From Peribolospora baueri (lineage: Eukaryota): DNA of 48,510 nt. Below the pieces are notes generated by a model, which made no database searches, was not told the DNA's origin, and worked only from the letters and a program-made list of their open reading frames with translations. The stretch lies in assembly GCA_029717555.1 (NCBI GenBank), contig JAMDHS010000124.1, positions 1-48,510 on the forward strand, written 5' to 3'. The translations under genes were made by a program, and so were the position numbers. Every line of letters starts with the position of its first letter. The stretch's first letter is position 1. This document shows positions 15,539-48,510 of the stretch, piece after piece.

Positions 15539-17929
15539 TCACTCCAGTAGAGTGGCCTCGTCCTTCTGTCGGACAGTGTGGAAGATGATCCTAGCCGTAA
15601 TCTCTCCCTGATCGTGGCAAAAAAGGCGCTGGGGTCAGTTATGGCGTGATCGTCAGAAGAAAAACGACGCAATGCTACTCACGACGGCGACGAGGCAGGC
15701 AATGACAATGAGCCAGATGATAGCTGGAACGTCGTTCCAGACAGACGAGGTCAGCTATCCATAGCAAAAACTGAAAGGTCGACCTCTGCGACCATAGGTC
15801 CAAAGATGGCGACTCACTCCAGGTGATCTTCGTCATTCCCTTATTGTTGATGTCCTCGTGGATCATCTCGAGGAGGTCGCTCGCCACACCGAGCCTTTCG
15901 TTGAGCACCTCGACTCTGCTTCCAATCTCCAAATAATCTTTGATGGCGTCGTATAGGCGATAGAGCGATGCTTCGTCCCAGAAAAGCTCCGGAACGTCTG
16001 CAGGTGCAAGGGTGGAGGTGCGCCCGGACCGGTCAGAATCACTTGATCGCCTCTGGAGACATTTTGGAAGACGCAACCGGACTCACCCAGCACATTGCTG
16101 ACGAGGTTCACATCTACCCTGAGCTTGAAGAGCCTTCCAGTGAGCATGAGCGCCTCCTTTCTGCTGAATTTTAGCTCTCCAGTGAGTGCAAGCTCCTTGG
16201 GGATGCCGGATGTCATCTCCAGCGTCTTTTGCATCCTCTCCTCGAAAACGCTTAGCTTGGCGCTCTGGGCGATCGCGTGCGCAAGGCTGAGCTTGAAGAG
16301 GTGGTTGGGGGTGGTGAAGGTGAGGAAATCGTTGCGAATGCGCGGTGCCGTGAGAGAAGGCTCGTAGCAGAAGTGAAGTTGCTCCACCTCCACGTCGCCC
16401 GGGTGCAAGGGCCGCTTGAGCGCGCCGGCGATGGAGAGGTCGTCGAGGATGTCGTGCTCCTCGCTTTCCGTAAAGTTGTAAAAAACGACAACTCCGTAAT
16501 CGAAAAAGACTACCTCGCCAATCTGCAGAGCCTCGTTGATGGCGATCTTGGTGGACAGAGGCACTGGCCGTTTTGCCGGTGCCTCGTCCAGCGAGACTAC
16601 CAGGGTCCCTTCACTGACTCCCTCTCCGTCAGCGTGTTCGTCGCGTTCACCGACTTGGGCACCGCCTTTGATGCGTCGCTGCCTCCCACCAGCCGGACTG
16701 TCCTCAGGAGCCGAAGTGGGTGAGCCAATTGACAGGCCATCAATGTAGCCGTGTTCATCGATGTGGTTCTCGTGCTCGTTTTCCGGCTGTGCGAAGTACT
16801 GAGCAATCAAAGCAGACACGCCAAAGGTGTGGCACGATCCATTAGACCGATGGACTGCCAGCAGCATTCTAAACGTGGATTGGGCCGGGAAGCAGTACGG
16901 ACCACGACTCACCGATCCTTCATATCCTCTTTCTTCCCTCTCCTCGAGCTGCCTATCGACGGCACTGCCGCCGCCAGGGCTCCGTTCCCCTTTTTCAGGG
17001 CTGCTCCTCACGTTGATCCCCGGCGCAAAGCCGGGCAGCAGGGGCTTGTAATACAGCGCCAAGCACGCCTCGTCGTAAAGCCTCGGCCGCACTCCATGCT
17101 CGCGGCGCAGAAACGCGAGCAGAGAGGGGAAGTGCAGGCCCTGTGCGACGGCGTAACCCGTGAGTCGAGGTAACGAAGTGTCGGCGCGCTCAGCGGGAGA
17201 CATGCGCTCGTATGTCTCATAGTCTTCCGCCTTTCTTTTTGCCCTTCTGCCCTTTGGAGGCTTCTTGAGACCCTCTCCAACAGATGGATGGCGCCTCTGC
17301 GACGGGTACGTGGCCAGATCGCCTCGCAGCTCATCCACTCGATCTTCCATTTCTTCTCTCTCCTCGACCGTGATTTCCTCTCGGTCCTCTTCGTCTCTTG
17401 CTTCTTCATCCTCCTCCTCTTCTTCTTCCCGCTCTTCCCCCTCCTTCACATCATCCGGAAACGGCTTGGTCTGGGCCTCCTCGGGCAGAAAGACGTGTCG
17501 GCCTGTGGTCTTGCTCGTCCGCACTCGTCTGTCGGTCCTGACAGGCAAGCTGTACTGTGTTGAGAGCGCGGGAGTCCCTTTTACCACTGTTCGCTTCGGC
17601 AGCGAGGAAGAGACGCTCGCTAGCGTGGTAGAGGTCGACGACGTCCGACGGAGAGGGGCCGGGCGCGCTCCGCCGGTCGACGTCATCCCGCCGACACCAC
17701 CGCCCGCTGTGGATCCAGGGACGTCTGCACTGGCGCCGCGGAGAGCCCGCTGAGCGTTTGCAGTGCCCGCAATTCCGGGCAAAGCCGTAGTAGTGCTCCG
17801 ACGAATCACAGAGGGTGGCACAGGATTCTGCGGCCCGCCGGTTGGATTCGGCGACCCGGGGGGCGGCGACTGGGCGCCGTTGCCGCTGGCACTACGCCCC
17901 GATGGGATTGCTGGCGGCCTGCGAGACAT
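15539..17929 (-). CDS. DUF155 / RMD1-RMD8-Sif2 family protein, 5 exons
   Basis: LPRLTGYAVA, GEVVFFDYGVVVFYNF, KLSLAHAIAQSAKLSVFE, LFKLRVDVNL, DVPELFWDE, YLEIGSRVEVLNER and a C-terminal TM WTIIWLIVIAC. Confidence 0.92.
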
Positions 17930-35939: not shown

Positions 35940-36530
35940 GGACCGGTGGATGCGTTGATTGATTATTAATCGATTTATCTGCTTAAAGTCCGTATATACA
36001 CCACAAGGGTCTTCTCGTTCCATCCAAGCCTCTCCGAGATGGCCCGGAAGCGAGTGGCGTAATCGCCCGCTGAGCCGGTCTGTCGAAGAGCAAGGAGCTG
36101 CTCGCTCGCGGTCCTGGACGAGTGAGGATCTCCGAAGCGTGAGAGGAGCGCAATAATCCCATTCGATTCGACAACGGAGAATGATGACGCAACTAGGGAG
36201 AGACGCGCTGGCCACTGCTCCAGTGCCCCCAATGTGCGGTTCGTTTCGGCCTCAGAAGTCGTCAACGACACTGCCTTTAGTGCTTTCGCTTCCGCCTTTA
36301 GCTGATCTGGCCGCAATAGCTCCATAAAATTCAGCTCCTTCGTGCGGTTCTTGCCGTTGATGGGTCGCGTGGGCGCCTCCCCCCCATAGATGTCGCTCCT
36401 GCGCGTCAATGCATCGTGTTTGCTCCCCTCCAGGCCTGGTCGGTAGGTGATCGTGAAATCGAAGTCGGCGAGCTTGGTCGCCCACCGGTCTTGGCGGCGG
36501 TTGAGAAGGCGTTTCGTTACGAACCACATC
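35940..36530 (-). mobile_element. Ty3/gypsy relics: RNase H C-terminus followed by a gag fragment
   Basis: [25 protein letters not shown]...DALTR is the end of RNase H. Downstream, RFGDPH...[28 protein letters not shown] is retrotrans_gag-like. Confidence 0.85.
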
Positions 36531-36532
36531 CG

Positions 36533-36845
36533 CACGGACTGCCTACGGACATTGTGTCGAACTGCGGCCGGGAGTACGTCAATGAGTTCTGGGAGGCTCT
36601 CGCCAAAGCTCTAGGAATCAAGCGGAGCTTCTCAACGGCGTACCACCCACAGACAGTCAGACCGAGCAAGTAAACCAGACTCTCGAACAGTATATCCCAC
36701 TCTACGTCTGCTATCAGCAGGACGACTGGGTCAATCACCTTCCGTCCGCCGAGTTCGCGTACAACAACGCGGAGCACAAGAGCACCGGCGTAACGCCGTT
36801 CTTTGCGAACAAAGGCTACCACCCGCGTTTGGAGATGCGCACGAG
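36533..36845 (+). mobile_element. Ty3/gypsy integrase core fragment (frameshifted)
   Basis: [19 protein letters not shown]...STAYHPQT, then a small deletion near 36657, then QTEQVNQTLEQY...QQDDWVNHLPSAEFAYNN...STGVTPFFANKGYHP. Confidence 0.92.
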
Positions 36846-39930: not shown

Positions 39931-42900
39931 TCAGTTCATAACGTCCTTCAGCTGAGTCTTCGGAATGGCGGCTGCGTACGCCCTGCGTTCGAGTCTCGTG
40001 TGAGTCTTCTGCTCGTACGCGTACGCGTATCCGATCAGGTCGTATTCAGAAAACTGCGTGCCGAGGAAGGCTAAGCCGAAAGGCACGCCCGGTGCAGGAT
40101 AAACGGTGTTGGGGTCCGACGACTGGATGGTCACATTCGCGGGGTAGAAGCCGAGCGGCACTGTTCGACGCGTAGAGAACGTAGCAGGACGTCACGGTGC
40201 AAGGCCAAAGGAGTCGGTAAGCGCGCACACAAGATCCATAAGGTTCCGAAGATCTACAGCTCACCGGTAATGATCGGGTAACCGGCGATGGCAGCTGGCA
40301 CGGTGGTGTCTCCTCCGGAAGGTAGGACGAGCGCGTCGAGGCCGTACTTCTTCAGTGCGCCGTCGATGCCGCGATCACGGCCCAGGCTGTGGTCATTAGC
40401 AAGGGCGGCGTAATAGGTCGAGTTGTAGCCGTTCGTCGCTTCCGATTCAATGAAGCTGAAGAGGAAGGACGCGGAGCAACATGATGCGCGCCATTGCGGA
40501 GAGAAAGGGCCGTATGAGCGTGCCAATTCATTGACGAGCCAATTACCGAAAGTACCAATGGGAGATTTAAGAGCAGGGACCCACATCGACTGATCAGAAT
40601 AATTGGCCGGAAGCTCCAGCTGAGGGTGGTCGTTGTCGTACTTGATGAGGTCTGCTAGCGTACGTACGCCCGTCGGGACTTTGACCAGTTTGGAGAGGTA
40701 GCTGTTCAGGTTGACTATCGAGCGCGAGTGCGCGGTGTGCAGTTCAGTAAAACAACGTGTCGTCGAGATTGTATGAAGACGGGAAGGAGACTCACGCTTA
40801 AAGTCGATATCGAGAACTATCGTCTAATGGCGCAAGAGGAGCATCAAATAATAAATGGTTGAGAGGATGAGAAAAAAAACGACGCTTTGAATGGAAGCGC
40901 GCCAACAGTTCAAAATTGTTGCCGCCAGCGAGGCCGCCCACCTCGTTGTTGCTCGCAATGAGTTCGTCCGCGTCCGGAAAATCAGCCGGATCGACGACGG
41001 TAGCACCAAGCTGCTTCAGCGTCTCCAAGCTCTCGTTGAACTTGACGATCACGCTCGGATTGAAACCGGCGAGCGTTGCATTGAGGAAGCCACGGCGAGG
41101 CACGCCGATTCGCTTGCCTTTCAGGGCGTCCTTGTTCAGCGCCTTGGTGTAGTCTGGAACTTGGACTGGTTGCGCGAGCGTGTAGTTGTCCCCTTTGGGG
41201 TCTCGACCTGCAATGACGGATAGGACGTGAGCAGCGTCCGCCACCGAACGTGCCATCGGCCCCACAGTGTCTTGATTGGCCGAGATGGGGATGACTGTGC
41301 GAGCATATTCAAGCGACAGAACAAGAGCAAGTATGTGAGCGAGAATCCGTCAATATGACAGCGGGAACACCTGCTGTGGGATGAAAACGGAGGTATCCGC
41401 CCACCTCCGGCTCTGCTGGTGAGGCCTACGCTAGGTTTGATGCCAACGAGATTGTTATACTGGCTAGGGCAAATGATTGAACCATCTGTCTCGGTACCCA
41501 GCGCAACGGTTGCGAGCCCGATGGCGGAAGAGACGCCCGAACCCGATGAAGAGCCGCATGGGTCTGCACCAGGGTAGTAAGGGTTGGTGCACTTAACACA
41601 TGGAAGAAACGTGATGCGGTCATGTATTAGTCGGCCTTTCCCGATGCAAACCCGCGAGACTATCTTCGTCACACCCCGCCGTCTTCTAGCATGTCGCCCA
41701 AACCAAGATATCTGGCAAGAAACCAAATGTGCCACCGTGCCTACCTGCCCTCCACGACCAGACCAGCCCGACGTCAGATTGCCTCGATAGTGAGCCCATT
41801 CAGACTGTATCACAAAGCGAGAAAGAGACGGGAGTAAGGACACTGGCCGCCATCATTACTAGAAAACAACATTCTCTGTGGAACAAGGAAATTGTATCTT
41901 TGTGACGCTTACCAGATTTGCCTTGCCAAGGATAATCGCACCCGCCTTACGGAGCTTGGCAATAACAGTAGCGTCGGAGGGAACGATGGAGCCTATTCGC
42001 AGAGCAAACCATAGCGATCAGCGGGGTCGCTCCTGGTCCTTGACGGTAGGACGAAGCGGGGTCAGATGTCACTCGCCCAAAAGAGCGTACGATCCAGCAG
42101 TCGTGTTCATGCCTGGCGTTTCATCAGGAGCAATCATAATCGACCAAAGGATAAATATCAATAGATATCCAGACGGTGAACGAAGCCGTTTGATCCATGA
42201 GGCTATCTGAGTGGAACCACTGGACGACATCCCAAACTCACCTTCCCAAGCAGCTGTAGCTATGTTGTCCTTGACAATAATAGGAATTCCGTGCAAGGAC
42301 CCGCGGCCCTTGCGACCGGGTGAGAGGTCCCGTTCGGCGTCAAGTGCGTGGGCCGCCGCAATGGCATACTCGTTCGTCTCGATGACGGCTCGTAGCATTG
42401 GACCTTGGAGGTTCACCTCTGCGATACGGGCAAGATAGGCCTGCAGGGGAATAGAAGAGATATGGAAACGGGACGGTTCAGCCTTGAGCTGTACCTCAGC
42501 TCGGCTCACTTCATCACTCCTCAACGGCTCACGTTCACAAGGTCGGCGCTGGTGTAGTCGCCGCTCCGCAGCCCGCGCTGGAGCTCATCGATGCCAGCCT
42601 CGTACAAGTCCGGCAAATCTTGCGTCCTGGCCTCCTCGCGATGCTTCGCTTGCTTCTCCTGCTTGAACCCAGGAGAACTCACCAAGACTTGCATGGAGTC
42701 AGCATCGGCTCGACGATCGTAGAGACCATCCTTATCGGAAACAGCCTGGGGACCGGGAGCGCGGAACTGGACGGATCGGGCGTCGAAGTAGTTCGTTGGC
42801 GAGCCCGTGAAAGACTCAGTGCGGACTTCGAGAGCAGAGGCGGCCAGAAGCGCGAGGGAGGGAGAGAAGAAGAGACGCGGAACGACAGAAAAGATGCAGA

Positions 42901-46909: not shown

Positions 46910-47425
46910 CCTGTCGCTGTCGCTGTCGCTGTCGGCACGTCGTCGAATCGCGTCCGTTCGTCATCCACCGGTGCCTCCGTGCTCCGTGCTCCGTGCTCCG
47001 TCCGACTTGGCAGAGGGGGCTGGCGATCTTATTGTCATCGGTCCTTAGGCGAGGAATGGGGACTGGCAGCCGGCTCGGCTCGGCTCGGCTCGACGTCCTT
47101 GCATGCGTGCCGTTCTCCTTGATCCTATCCGATCCTCTTCGTCGTCGCCAGCAGCGCGCCTCGATCCAATCGGGACCTTCTTCCGCGATGGACTGACTGG
47201 CTCGGCGGACGGACTGACTCGCAAGCTAACCGCCTCCTTCGTCAGACCCCTTTGGTATGCGCTCAGCGCAGCCCACACAAGGCCTCCCTCCGCTCCGGGG
47301 CGTGCGTGCGTGCGTCACACCGGTTCTTATACTCACCGTAGCTCTCTCTCCCCTAGGTGCGAGGTGGCGGGTCGTCGTCGCTGTCGCTGTCGCCGTCGCC
47401 GTCGTCGTCGTCGTCGTCGTCGTGC
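46910..47425. repeat. Cluster of short SSRs in the long intergenic region: (CTGTCG)n, (GTGCTCC)n, (GGCTC)n, (GCGT)n, (GTC)n
   Basis: Visible at ~46911-46934, ~46971-46999, ~47071-47091, ~47299-47315 and ~47372-47422. Confidence 0.85.
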
Positions 47426-47724
47426 CCGCGTCGCCTTCGGCGTTGCGTTGCGCTGCCCTTGAATCCATCCACATCCGCCGGTCAGCGAGCCAGCCATCTC
47501 GGATCGCACTGGACAGATGCGAGATGTAAGCTCTACCGTGCGTCGCGGGGCGGCGTCTGGCATGCCGCGCGTGTTGCTGCCCGCCTCCTCTGCTCCTCAT
47601 TCTCATTCTCTTGGGCGCCTCCGCTCGGCCTAGCCTCTCCCTCAGAATGCGCGTAATCCCTCGCTCGCCCAAGTCCATGTCCCAAGCGCCGACCGTCCGG
47701 AACGCCAGCGCCCATCTTTCTACC

Positions 47725-47731
47725 TATAAAG
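47725..47731 (+). promoter_or_regulatory. TATA box of the secreted repeat-protein gene
   Basis: CTATAAAG lies ~145 bp upstream of the ATG at 47871 and is followed by a pyrimidine-rich leader. Confidence 0.6.
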
Positions 47732-47870
47732 ACGCGGCAGCCGACCGCAACAGCCGCCCGTCTCTTCCACCATCGACGCACGCGTCCCCGCCTCTGTCCG
47801 TTTGTTCTCCACCCCCGACCCGTATTGCCCACGCTCTTTTTGTCCTTCCATTGTCTTACGCCCGTTGACT

Positions 47871-48510
47871 ATGCAGGTGAGCACGCGCACCACAGCAGTC
47901 CATCTCGATCGTCGTCTCGCGTCACGCGGTCTGCTCACTCTCGTCGCGTCGCTCAACGCGTCTCGCGCCCGCGCGTCTTTCCCCTCCGTCAGCTCTACTC
48001 CCTCGTTGCTCTGGCCTTGGCCGCCAGCGCCGCTCACGCCGCCCATCCCCACCCGGCCGCTCGCAACGCCGCGCCCAACAACCTCCCTGACCGCCGCCAA
48101 CTCCCGGTCAACGGCCAAGCCCTCGATCTCGTTACTAGCACCGTCGGCGGTCTCACCAGCGGTGGCCTCCGTCGTCAGGAGGGCTCCGCTGCCCCGGCCG
48201 GCGGCGACAACTCCGCCGCTCCCGCCAGCGCTCCTGGCGCTTCTTCCGGTGGCAACCCGCTCAGCGGTCTCCTCGGTGGTCTTGGCGGTGGCCTCGCCGG
48301 CCGTCAGCTTCCCAACCTCGGCGGTGTGACCGACGCTCTCCCCCTCGGCGGACGTCAGCTCGACCCGAGCGGCGTGGTTAACATCGCTACTGGTCTCGTC
48401 GGCGGCGTCACCAGCGGTGGCCTCCGTCGTCAGGCGGACTCTTCTGCCCCCGCTGGTGGCGACGGCTCCGCCGCCCCGGCCAGCGGTGACAACTCCGCCG
48501 CTCCCGCCAA
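47871..48510 (+). CDS. Secreted Kex2-processed repeat protein (KEP / repellent-like precursor), 3' truncated by the window
   Basis: Exon 1 is ATGCAG, followed by a GTGAGC...TCAG intron (47877-47992). The product reads MQLYSLVALALAASAAHA-AHPHPAARNAAPNNLPDRR|QLPVNGQALDLVTSTVGGLTSGGLRR|QEGSAAPAGGDNSAAPA...GGLAGR|QLPNLGGVTDALPLGGR|QLDPSGVVNIATGLVGGVTSGGLRR|QADSSAPAGGD... Codon usage is strongly C/T-ending. Confidence 0.85.

Follow-up and report, generated by a model that had tools for sequence, protein, structure and literature searches.

At the 3' end of a 48,510-nucleotide (nt) stretch of contig JAMDHS010000124.1 from Peribolospora baueri (GenBank assembly GCA_029717555.1; the whole stretch is referred to here as the window), a preliminary description made from the letters alone had placed a hidden protein-coding gene for a secreted precursor of several peptides, with a first exon consisting of ATGCAG only, an intron and a second exon running off the window. 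We found all three elements exactly where the description had put them (Table 1). From 47993 the second exon is open through the last base of the window, with a translation of 172 residues, and the ATG at 47871 is the first after a TATAAA box as well as the only one between that box and exon 2.

For comparison we used the contigs of four DNA runs of one study, two from an organism A, which may be the source of the window, and two from a related organism B. In the single-copy part of exon 2 (47993-48178), all eight listed organism B substitutions fall at codon position 3 of the exon-2 frame, an arrangement with a chance probability of 1.5e-4, and seven of the eight are synonymous. None of them is synonymous in the unspliced frame read from the ATG, and a long open frame on the minus strand (47720-48508) makes one of the eight synonymous and places none at position 3. 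One antisense frame also has all eight at position 3 (six synonymous), but it is closed except for a 40-residue open reading frame (ORF), leaving the exon-2 frame as the only one of the six that is both open and in agreement with the substitution pattern. The intron of organism B is longer by 4 nt behind 47893, shorter by 2 nt at 47970 and altered by four substitutions, so that any frame through it is broken, whereas the length changes in the coding repeats (27 nt, and the 276-nt loop described below) are multiples of three. Changes of this kind are tolerated by a non-coding intron, unlike by coding sequence, and the intron is therefore supported. Around exon 1 (47818-47892) there is no organism B difference among those listed, 11 further differences lying outside that list. 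Taken together, the position-3 pattern and the frame-breaking intron changes bear out the claim of a hidden gene; on this comparative evidence the gene and its two-codon first exon are very probably real, with splicing supported by the comparison.

Codon use is strongly biased, with 91% of the codons in four-fold boxes ending in C or T, compared with 51-63% in two ordinary ORFs of the window and 76% in a ribosomal protein S20 fragment. The bias of this sequence is consistent with high expression.

Table 1. Features of the candidate precursor gene and its predicted products in the window
Feature	Position	Strand	Remarks
TATAAA box	47725-47730	+	141 nt 5' of the start codon; read directly
Exon 1 (Met-Gln)	47871-47876	+	ATG 47871-73, CAG 47874-76; A at -3
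Intron	47877-47992	+	116 nt; GTGAGC...pyrimidine tract...CAG; 3' end reads ...CCTCCGTCAG
Remainder of predicted signal peptide	47993-48040	+	LYSLVALALAASAAHA; predicted cut after A-H-A, manual rules
Short pro-region	48041-48097	+	ends D-R-R
Basic site RRQ	48092-48100	+	
Predicted peptide 1	48098-48175	+	24 residues (QLPVNG...TSGGL) + RR
Basic site RRQ	48170-48178	+	
Predicted spacer 1	48176-48304	+	42 residues; acidic Ala/Pro/Ser/Gly head and Gly/Leu hydrophobic tail; ends L-A-G-R
Basic site RQ	48302-48307	+	monobasic
Predicted peptide 2	48305-48355	+	16 residues (QLPNLGGVTDALPLGG) + R
Basic site RQ	48353-48358	+	monobasic
Predicted peptide 3	48356-48430	+	23 residues (QLDPSG...TSGGL) + RR; homologous to peptide 1 (repeat families D1/D2)
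Basic site RRQ	48425-48433	+	
Predicted spacer 2, partial	48431-48510	+	ends with the window; holds the 27-nt sub-repeat

Predicted signal peptide, basic sites and repeat units

The N-terminus of the spliced product fits the signal peptide that had been claimed for it. By manual rules the predicted peptide has 18 residues, with an 11-residue hydrophobic core (mean Kyte-Doolittle (KD) value 2.23) and A-H-A at -3 to -1, and the AlphaFold2 model has a helix over this segment; its n-region is without a basic residue. Two His residues are located in the pro-region that follows.

All five of the basic sites that had been described as each preceding Gln are present in the window. The 156 residues after the predicted signal peptide contain six Arg runs, five of which precede Gln, and five of the six Gln residues follow Arg. 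Five such pairs were not reached in any of 200,000 composition-preserving shuffles (maximum four), a figure to be read with the fact that the five sites are not independent events, because the units are mutual duplicates. Beyond the pro-region, Arg is restricted to unit boundaries. Past the predicted signal peptide the visible part contains no C, F, K, M, W or Y, and the composition count thereby agrees with the earlier statement that no Cys, Lys or aromatic residue occurs there.

The monobasic sites, two in the window and one in a contig beyond it that is described below, read L-A-G-R, L-G-G-R and I-G-S-R, with an aliphatic residue at P4 in three of three. Aliphatic P4 residues improve cleavage by Kex2. 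The residue at P2' after the Arg sites is L, E or A. According to Bader et al., Kex2 also processes sites with other P2 residues, and acidic or small residues are enriched at P1', P2' and P4' of cleaved sites. As to the Ste13 signature of alpha-factor (X-Ala or X-Pro after the Kex2 site), the residues found here are QL, QE and QA, with X-A occurring once (48431-48436), so that the precursor lacks the signature of alpha-factor-type pheromones; basidiomycetes do not use Kex2-processed repeat proteins (KEPs) as mating pheromones.

The higher-order repeat of about 255 nt that had been proposed is present as a 102-nt direct repeat (48129-48230 and 48384-48485) with 82% identity and a spacing of 255 nt. 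A 27-nt (9-residue) sub-repeat lies in the spacer at 48446-48509, and a 20-nt motif (family D2) is common to all four hydrophobic segments. The three Gly/Leu/Val-rich peptides of 24, 16 and 23 residues have a grand average of hydropathy of 0.50, 0.32 and 0.74, respectively, and a net charge of -1 each. They had been called amphipathic-looking, a description that we could not uphold, as no peptide exceeds its shuffled controls in hydrophobic moment at either 100 or 170 degrees (the lowest shuffle fraction being 0.094). Amphiphilicity, as far as it is present, is arranged in blocks along the chain. Of the proposed class of acidic peptides, the acidic head stands, but these products are not wholly acidic, each ending in a hydrophobic Gly/Leu tail (NPLSGLLGGLGGGLAG).

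The visible part after the signal peptide is almost entirely repeat and holds no hydrophobic stretch with a mean KD above 1.5. Ser and Thr together make up 13% of residues, which is low for mucin-like wall proteins, and the protein is therefore not of the mucin type. AlphaFold2, run without an alignment, returned a mean predicted local distance difference test (pLDDT) score of 46.8 and a predicted template modelling score of 0.19, with a low-confidence beta-hairpin over peptide 1 (pLDDT 53-68), the single hint at amyloid formation; read from these scores, the protein is predicted to be intrinsically disordered.

Copy number and conservation beyond the window

The contigs of organism A indicate how the gene may continue past 48510 and why the window stops there. 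In both runs the single-copy contig ends at 48285. A 57-nt junction contig has a depth of 4.2-4.3 times single copy, and a 279-nt unit contig covering 48283-48510 has 2.8-2.9 times; the latter loops from 48510 to 48243 across 8 intervening nt, so that the repeat period is 276 nt (92 codons) and the frame is kept. An exit contig of 2,511 nt at 1.1-1.25 times single-copy depth opens with a copy of 48283-48418 that has diverged at 26 places, beyond which it departs from the repeat; the 30 letters of this departure, still repeat-like, translate in frame to SIGSRQLSGT, a further Arg-Gln-Leu site. The window probably ends at 48510 because near-identical 276-nt units recur at this point, and the gene sits at a contig end because such units collapse in short-read assemblies. 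The repeat count, which the preliminary description had proposed to obtain by extending the sequence, is by contig depth estimated at about three in-frame 276-nt units plus the divergent copy. In the simplest layout, an N-terminal unit is probably followed by about three near-identical units of 92 residues, one divergent final unit and the remainder, for a precursor of roughly 420 residues before a C-terminal remainder beyond the window.

Both the divergent copy and organism B point to conservation of the basic sites themselves. In the divergent copy, six listed changes fall in 48313-48361 (13 of its 26 differences being listed), four in peptide 2, one in an Arg codon (48355) and one in the next Leu codon; all six are synonymous and leave GRQLPNLGGVTDALPLGGRQL intact, including both Arg codons, after which DPSG is replaced by GGGS. 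Peptide 1 in organism B carries listed substitutions at 48100, 48106, 48115 and 48127, plus one at 48175 in the second Arg codon, and all five are synonymous. The Arg codons of organism B are kept at every covered site, at 48175 through that synonymous change. The claim that the basic sites are real gains from this retention of Arg through synonymous changes in both comparisons. That of a Gln after every basic site holds for the window (five of five) and fails in organism B, which has His at 48178, after the second Arg-Arg; Gln is therefore not essential at that site. On the sequences compared, the basic residues are the constant feature, with Gln strongly preferred and not obligatory.

The arrangement of the units differs between organisms A and B. 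Organism B has an in-frame 27-nt insertion behind 48181 and a variant unit in which peptide 2 is joined directly to ...PGGLRR, followed by QEDS, with peptide 3 absent. Judged from these contigs, the repeat array is changing rapidly as units are gained and lost. Over 48181-48510 organism B has an extra 9-residue unit, GSAAPAGGD, and its contig depths there are lower and more uneven.

Searches, neighbouring genes and known precursors

No relative of the spliced product was found. A word-indexed search of proteins of 302-2000 residues gave no match at E <= 0.001, Pfam assigned no family, and tblastn within the window revealed no paralogue (best off-target E-value 0.05). Among metagenome contigs, 593 pattern matches were obtained and none was confirmed by tblastn, and the best feature score in the ESM Atlas, 0.75, is under any useful level. 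The motifs GGLRRQ and GRQLP have no occurrence in the supplementary files of PMC7329392 (three files) and PMC6339444 (four files), which, being partly covered, constitute weak evidence. The sole phmmer match among 1.84 billion representatives (E 9e-5, in 13 stretches) was rejected as spurious, being a 13-fold translated satellite-like tandem repeat of unrelated architecture. Described earlier as uncharacterised, the gene is so with regard to its sequence; the kind of system is already known.

Elsewhere in the window, a homologue of DUF155/RMD8 (Sad1-interacting factor 3) is encoded on the minus strand as a single exon of 688 residues (15863-17929). Its best named matches, with 61-70% identity over the conserved domain, are from Microstroma, Tilletia, Kalmanozyma, Sympodiomycopsis, Sporisorium, Meira, Testicularia and Jaminaea, and these matches place the organism in Ustilaginomycotina; good alignment to other Ustilaginomycotina is limited to that domain, 22-23% of the protein, and its N-terminal part is lineage-specific. 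We surveyed the region upstream of the candidate gene by comparing 110 stop-to-stop ORFs of at least 75 residues (32.6-47.9 kb) with Pfam. The matches were to an alpha/beta-hydrolase, retroelement gag and integrase fragments, a methyltransferase, an amidase and ribosomal protein S20. Processing genes had been suggested as possible neighbours, and the survey went against this, with no match to DUF3328/UstYa, a peptidase or a glutaminyl cyclase among the 110 ORFs.

The two retroelement fragments, gag on the minus strand (E 2e-4) and integrase core on the plus strand (E 4e-5), are weak matches that fall short of the Pfam cut-offs; they lie together at 35978-36670 and probably represent a decayed retroelement. 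The amidase-family gene (40257-42584, minus strand) comes in at least three ORF pieces, an arrangement suggestive of several introns, and illustrates the intron-rich genes of the window. A (GTC/CGT)n microsatellite of about 18 units is located at 47371-47423, about 450 nt 5' of the start codon of the precursor gene, and the 3.5-kb stretch around it (44.4-47.7 kb) contains no ORF with a Pfam match. At its other end the window starts with 44 G in a row (1-44), followed by 42 A at 145-186, and it may correspond to one entire short-read contig whose start is artefactual or of low complexity and whose other end lies in the collapsed repeat. A perfect 17-nt tandem repeat of 3.2 copies (CGACTAGCGTCGTCAGC) is present at 1545-1599.

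Given its predicted architecture, we compared the precursor with the KEPs of other fungi. Le Marquer et al. (2019; PMC6339444) define these by a signal peptide, no membrane segment and repeats separated by KR or RR, with at least four fragments on KR/RR cutting, at least three similar fragments that together make up at least 15% of the protein. Here the three RR sites of the visible part divide the chain behind the predicted signal peptide into four fragments, and the multi-peptide architecture that had been claimed fits this operational definition, the RR fragments being read from the sequence, and the signal peptide and the repeat number resting on rule and inference. Umemura (2020; PMC7329392) counts 7,878 KEPs, 2,560 of them without a homologue, and describes more than one peptide type per precursor as frequent. 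The gene resembles KEPs in its predicted signal peptide, its tandem units between RR sites and its several peptide types, as well as in having no homologue found and, like most basidiomycete KEPs, no DUF3328 neighbour upstream. It differs from them in that half of the unit boundaries are monobasic (L-x-G-R, I-x-S-R) and would go uncounted by KEP pipelines, in the length of the unit between RR sites (85-92 residues) and in its two-codon first exon.

Peptides that start with Gln after a Kex2 site and are pyroglutamated, such as pyro-QVPVDEPA and pyro-QIPAELPTK..., are known from KEPs of Coprinopsis cinerea, where they are linear and minimally modified and kep knockouts have no axenic phenotype (Vogt et al. 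2022; PMC9769878). The products predicted here are likewise from a basidiomycete and Gln-initiated, but their composition differs, and an exhaustive phmmer search revealed no sequence similarity. In the same subphylum as our organism, Ustilago maydis Rep1 has a signal peptide and 12 repeats, and cutting at its Kex2 sites gives a protein of 229 residues along with 10 peptides, each 34-53 residues long, the peptides being deposited in the hyphal wall, where they form surface-active amyloid (PMC3133707). A putative Rep1 orthologue has been reported as far away as Tilletia. Like Rep1, the gene would encode a pre-pro-protein with a signal peptide and up to about a dozen repeats, for which Kex2 cutting is predicted. 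Homology to Rep1 was not detected at E <= 1e-3 among the 1.84 billion representatives, the spurious repeat excepted, in a set whose inclusion of Rep1 itself is unconfirmed. Unlike those of Rep1, the peptides here are shorter (16-24 residues), alternate with acidic spacers and have no amphipathic periodicity, and whereas Rep1 uses KR sites, the sites here are RR or a monobasic R, then Gln. From these sequence features the gene may be filed as an orphan KEP-type precursor, possibly repellent-like, and not as a member of the Rep1 family.

Ece1 of Candida albicans, a Kex2 substrate in vitro (Bader et al.), is similar in being a secreted polyprotein cut by Kex2 into several peptides, cutting that is predicted for the present protein. 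Its product candidalysin is a cationic, amphipathic, helical lytic peptide, unlike the peptides here, which are anionic (charge -1), Gly/Pro-rich and not amphipathic. Because of this net charge and the lack of amphipathicity beyond chance, the Ece1-like lytic activity that had been entertained is unlikely.

Proposed processing, role and competing explanations

On balance, we think it probable from the sequence that the window holds the 5' part of a gene for a secreted, disordered, tandem-repeat polyprotein of the KEP type, which would supply pyroglutamyl peptides and acidic, hydrophobic-tailed spacers to the cell surface. Transcription would start 3' of the TATA box, and the intron would be removed after codon 2, a step with comparative support. 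The 18-residue signal peptide, as identified by rule, would direct the protein into the endoplasmic reticulum. In the late Golgi, the kexin Kex2 would cut after each Arg-Arg, and the monobasic Leu-x-Gly-Arg and Ile-x-Ser-Arg sites would probably be cut by Kex2 or by a yapsin-type monobasic protease, after which a Kex1-type carboxypeptidase would trim the C-terminal Arg. The Gln thus exposed at the N-terminus may cyclise to pyroglutamate, as in the Coprinopsis KEP peptides. From each unit, two or three Gly/Leu/Val-rich peptides would then be released, 16-24 residues long, slightly hydrophobic and with a net charge of -1, and with them one spacer peptide (42-50 residues) that has an acidic head of Ala/Pro/Ser/Gly and a tail of Gly/Leu. 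By analogy with the Ustilago repellents, the role we favour is that of surface- or wall-deposited peptides that would be surface-active or self-assembling. A role as a cationic lytic toxin or as a cyclised peptide that is ribosomally synthesised and then modified post-translationally (RiPP) is less likely, and the peptides may have a signalling role.

Several observations weigh against this reading. Of the five sites in the window, two are monobasic, as is the one of the exit contig, and all three have Gly or Ser at P2, where such residues suit Kex2 poorly; organism B has His instead of Gln behind the second Arg-Arg. The hydrophobic moments, which do not exceed those of shuffled sequences, are a further difficulty, since missing amphipathicity makes surface-active repellents a poorer analogy. 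The window itself shows each peptide type in just two copies; the extra copies are taken from contig depth, a rough measure, and the differences of the divergent copy outside those listed could include non-synonymous changes inside peptide 2. Both comparison organisms stem from one study. The preference for pyrimidine-ending codons may partly reflect strand composition, the intron being likewise rich in C and T. Finally, the C-terminus beyond the window could carry a glycosylphosphatidylinositol (GPI) signal or a folded domain, either of which would change the interpretation.

The competing explanation that deserves most attention, although we judge it unlikely, is that of a secreted protein left uncut, or cut once near its N-terminus, which would serve, GPI-anchored or not, as a disordered protein of the surface or wall, polymorphic in length, and in which Arg is merely part of the repeat. 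Rsp3 is such a protein of a smut-type fungus; it decorates hyphae, undergoes N-terminal processing only and is polymorphic in repeat length (PMC5923269). The predicted disorder, the 27-nt insertion and unit variant between organisms A and B, the position of the C-terminus beyond the window and the escape of some good Kex2 motifs from cleavage in vitro (Bader et al.) would all be compatible with a protein of this kind. Rsp3, however, has a Cys-rich region and no predicted cutting between repeats, whereas here Arg or Arg-Arg stands at every boundary and Cys is absent. An uncut protein would also leave unaccounted for the confinement of Arg, past the pro-region, to unit boundaries in a sequence that lacks Lys, as well as the preservation of Arg and Gln-Leu through synonymous changes while neighbouring residues vary, and the Ser and Thr content of just 13% likewise speaks against it. 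Clearly improbable, but more a variant of the polyprotein reading than a contradiction of it, is a cleavable N-terminal array in front of a folded C-terminal domain, which would yield peptides plus a protein. Ustilago Hum3 is built in this way, with repellent-like repeats and Kex2 sites followed by a hydrophobin domain. The single-copy contig of 2,511 nt beyond the divergent repeat leaves room for more coding sequence, and there are precedents in rep1 and hum3, both described as repetitive proteins with Kex2 sites (PMC7329392), and in the large protein released from Rep1 alongside its 10 peptides (PMC3133707); the 30 nt readable downstream, on the other hand, are still repeat-like.

The two remaining explanations are far less probable. 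A precursor of cyclised or heavily modified peptides, that is, a RiPP of the dikaritin/ustiloxin type made with DUF3328/UstYa oxidases, would share the architecture of a signal peptide and repeats between basic sites, but we consider it highly improbable, given that the known DUF3328 cyclisations need Tyr, according to PMC7329392, and neither Tyr nor any other aromatic residue is present. None of the 110 upstream ORFs matches DUF3328, and such a neighbour accompanies only 6.1% of basidiomycete KEPs in the same source. It is equally remote that there is no gene at all and that a GC-rich, low-complexity DNA repeat is open in several frames by chance. The open minus strand and the failure of every search run to return a homologue would fit this; against it stand the eight substitutions at position 3 of the exon-2 frame, seven of them synonymous, compared with one in the open minus frame, the multiples of three among coding-repeat but not intron length changes, the strong codon bias, and a TATA box, first ATG and splice signals all in place.

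The polyprotein reading also has a more specific form, namely a lineage-specific repellent system independent of Rep1 in which block amphiphiles, with an acidic Ala/Pro/Ser head and a Gly/Leu tail, and short Gly/Leu/Val peptides would all be pyroglutamate-capped and freed at a strict Arg|Gln-Leu motif that includes monobasic sites. We regard this as speculative and rather unlikely. If it were true, the processing specificity would be that of a kexin with an aliphatic P4 preference or of a dedicated monobasic protease, missed by KEP mining rules, and many micro-exon, monobasic-site precursors would have been overlooked in basidiomycete yeasts.

Kex2-type polyproteins, pyroglutamyl peptides and wall-associated repellents are already established in other fungi; the finding thus adds to a known class without raising a new question. 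It does point to three blind spots, one in annotation, where a two-codon first exon conceals the signal peptide from ORF-based callers, one in KEP mining, where rules confined to KR and RR ignore monobasic boundaries, and one in short-read assembly, where the collapse of the near-identical 276-nt units leaves the gene at a contig end. If the favoured reading is right, the gene would add an orphan, probably highly expressed peptide precursor to the poorly studied smut-related fungi.

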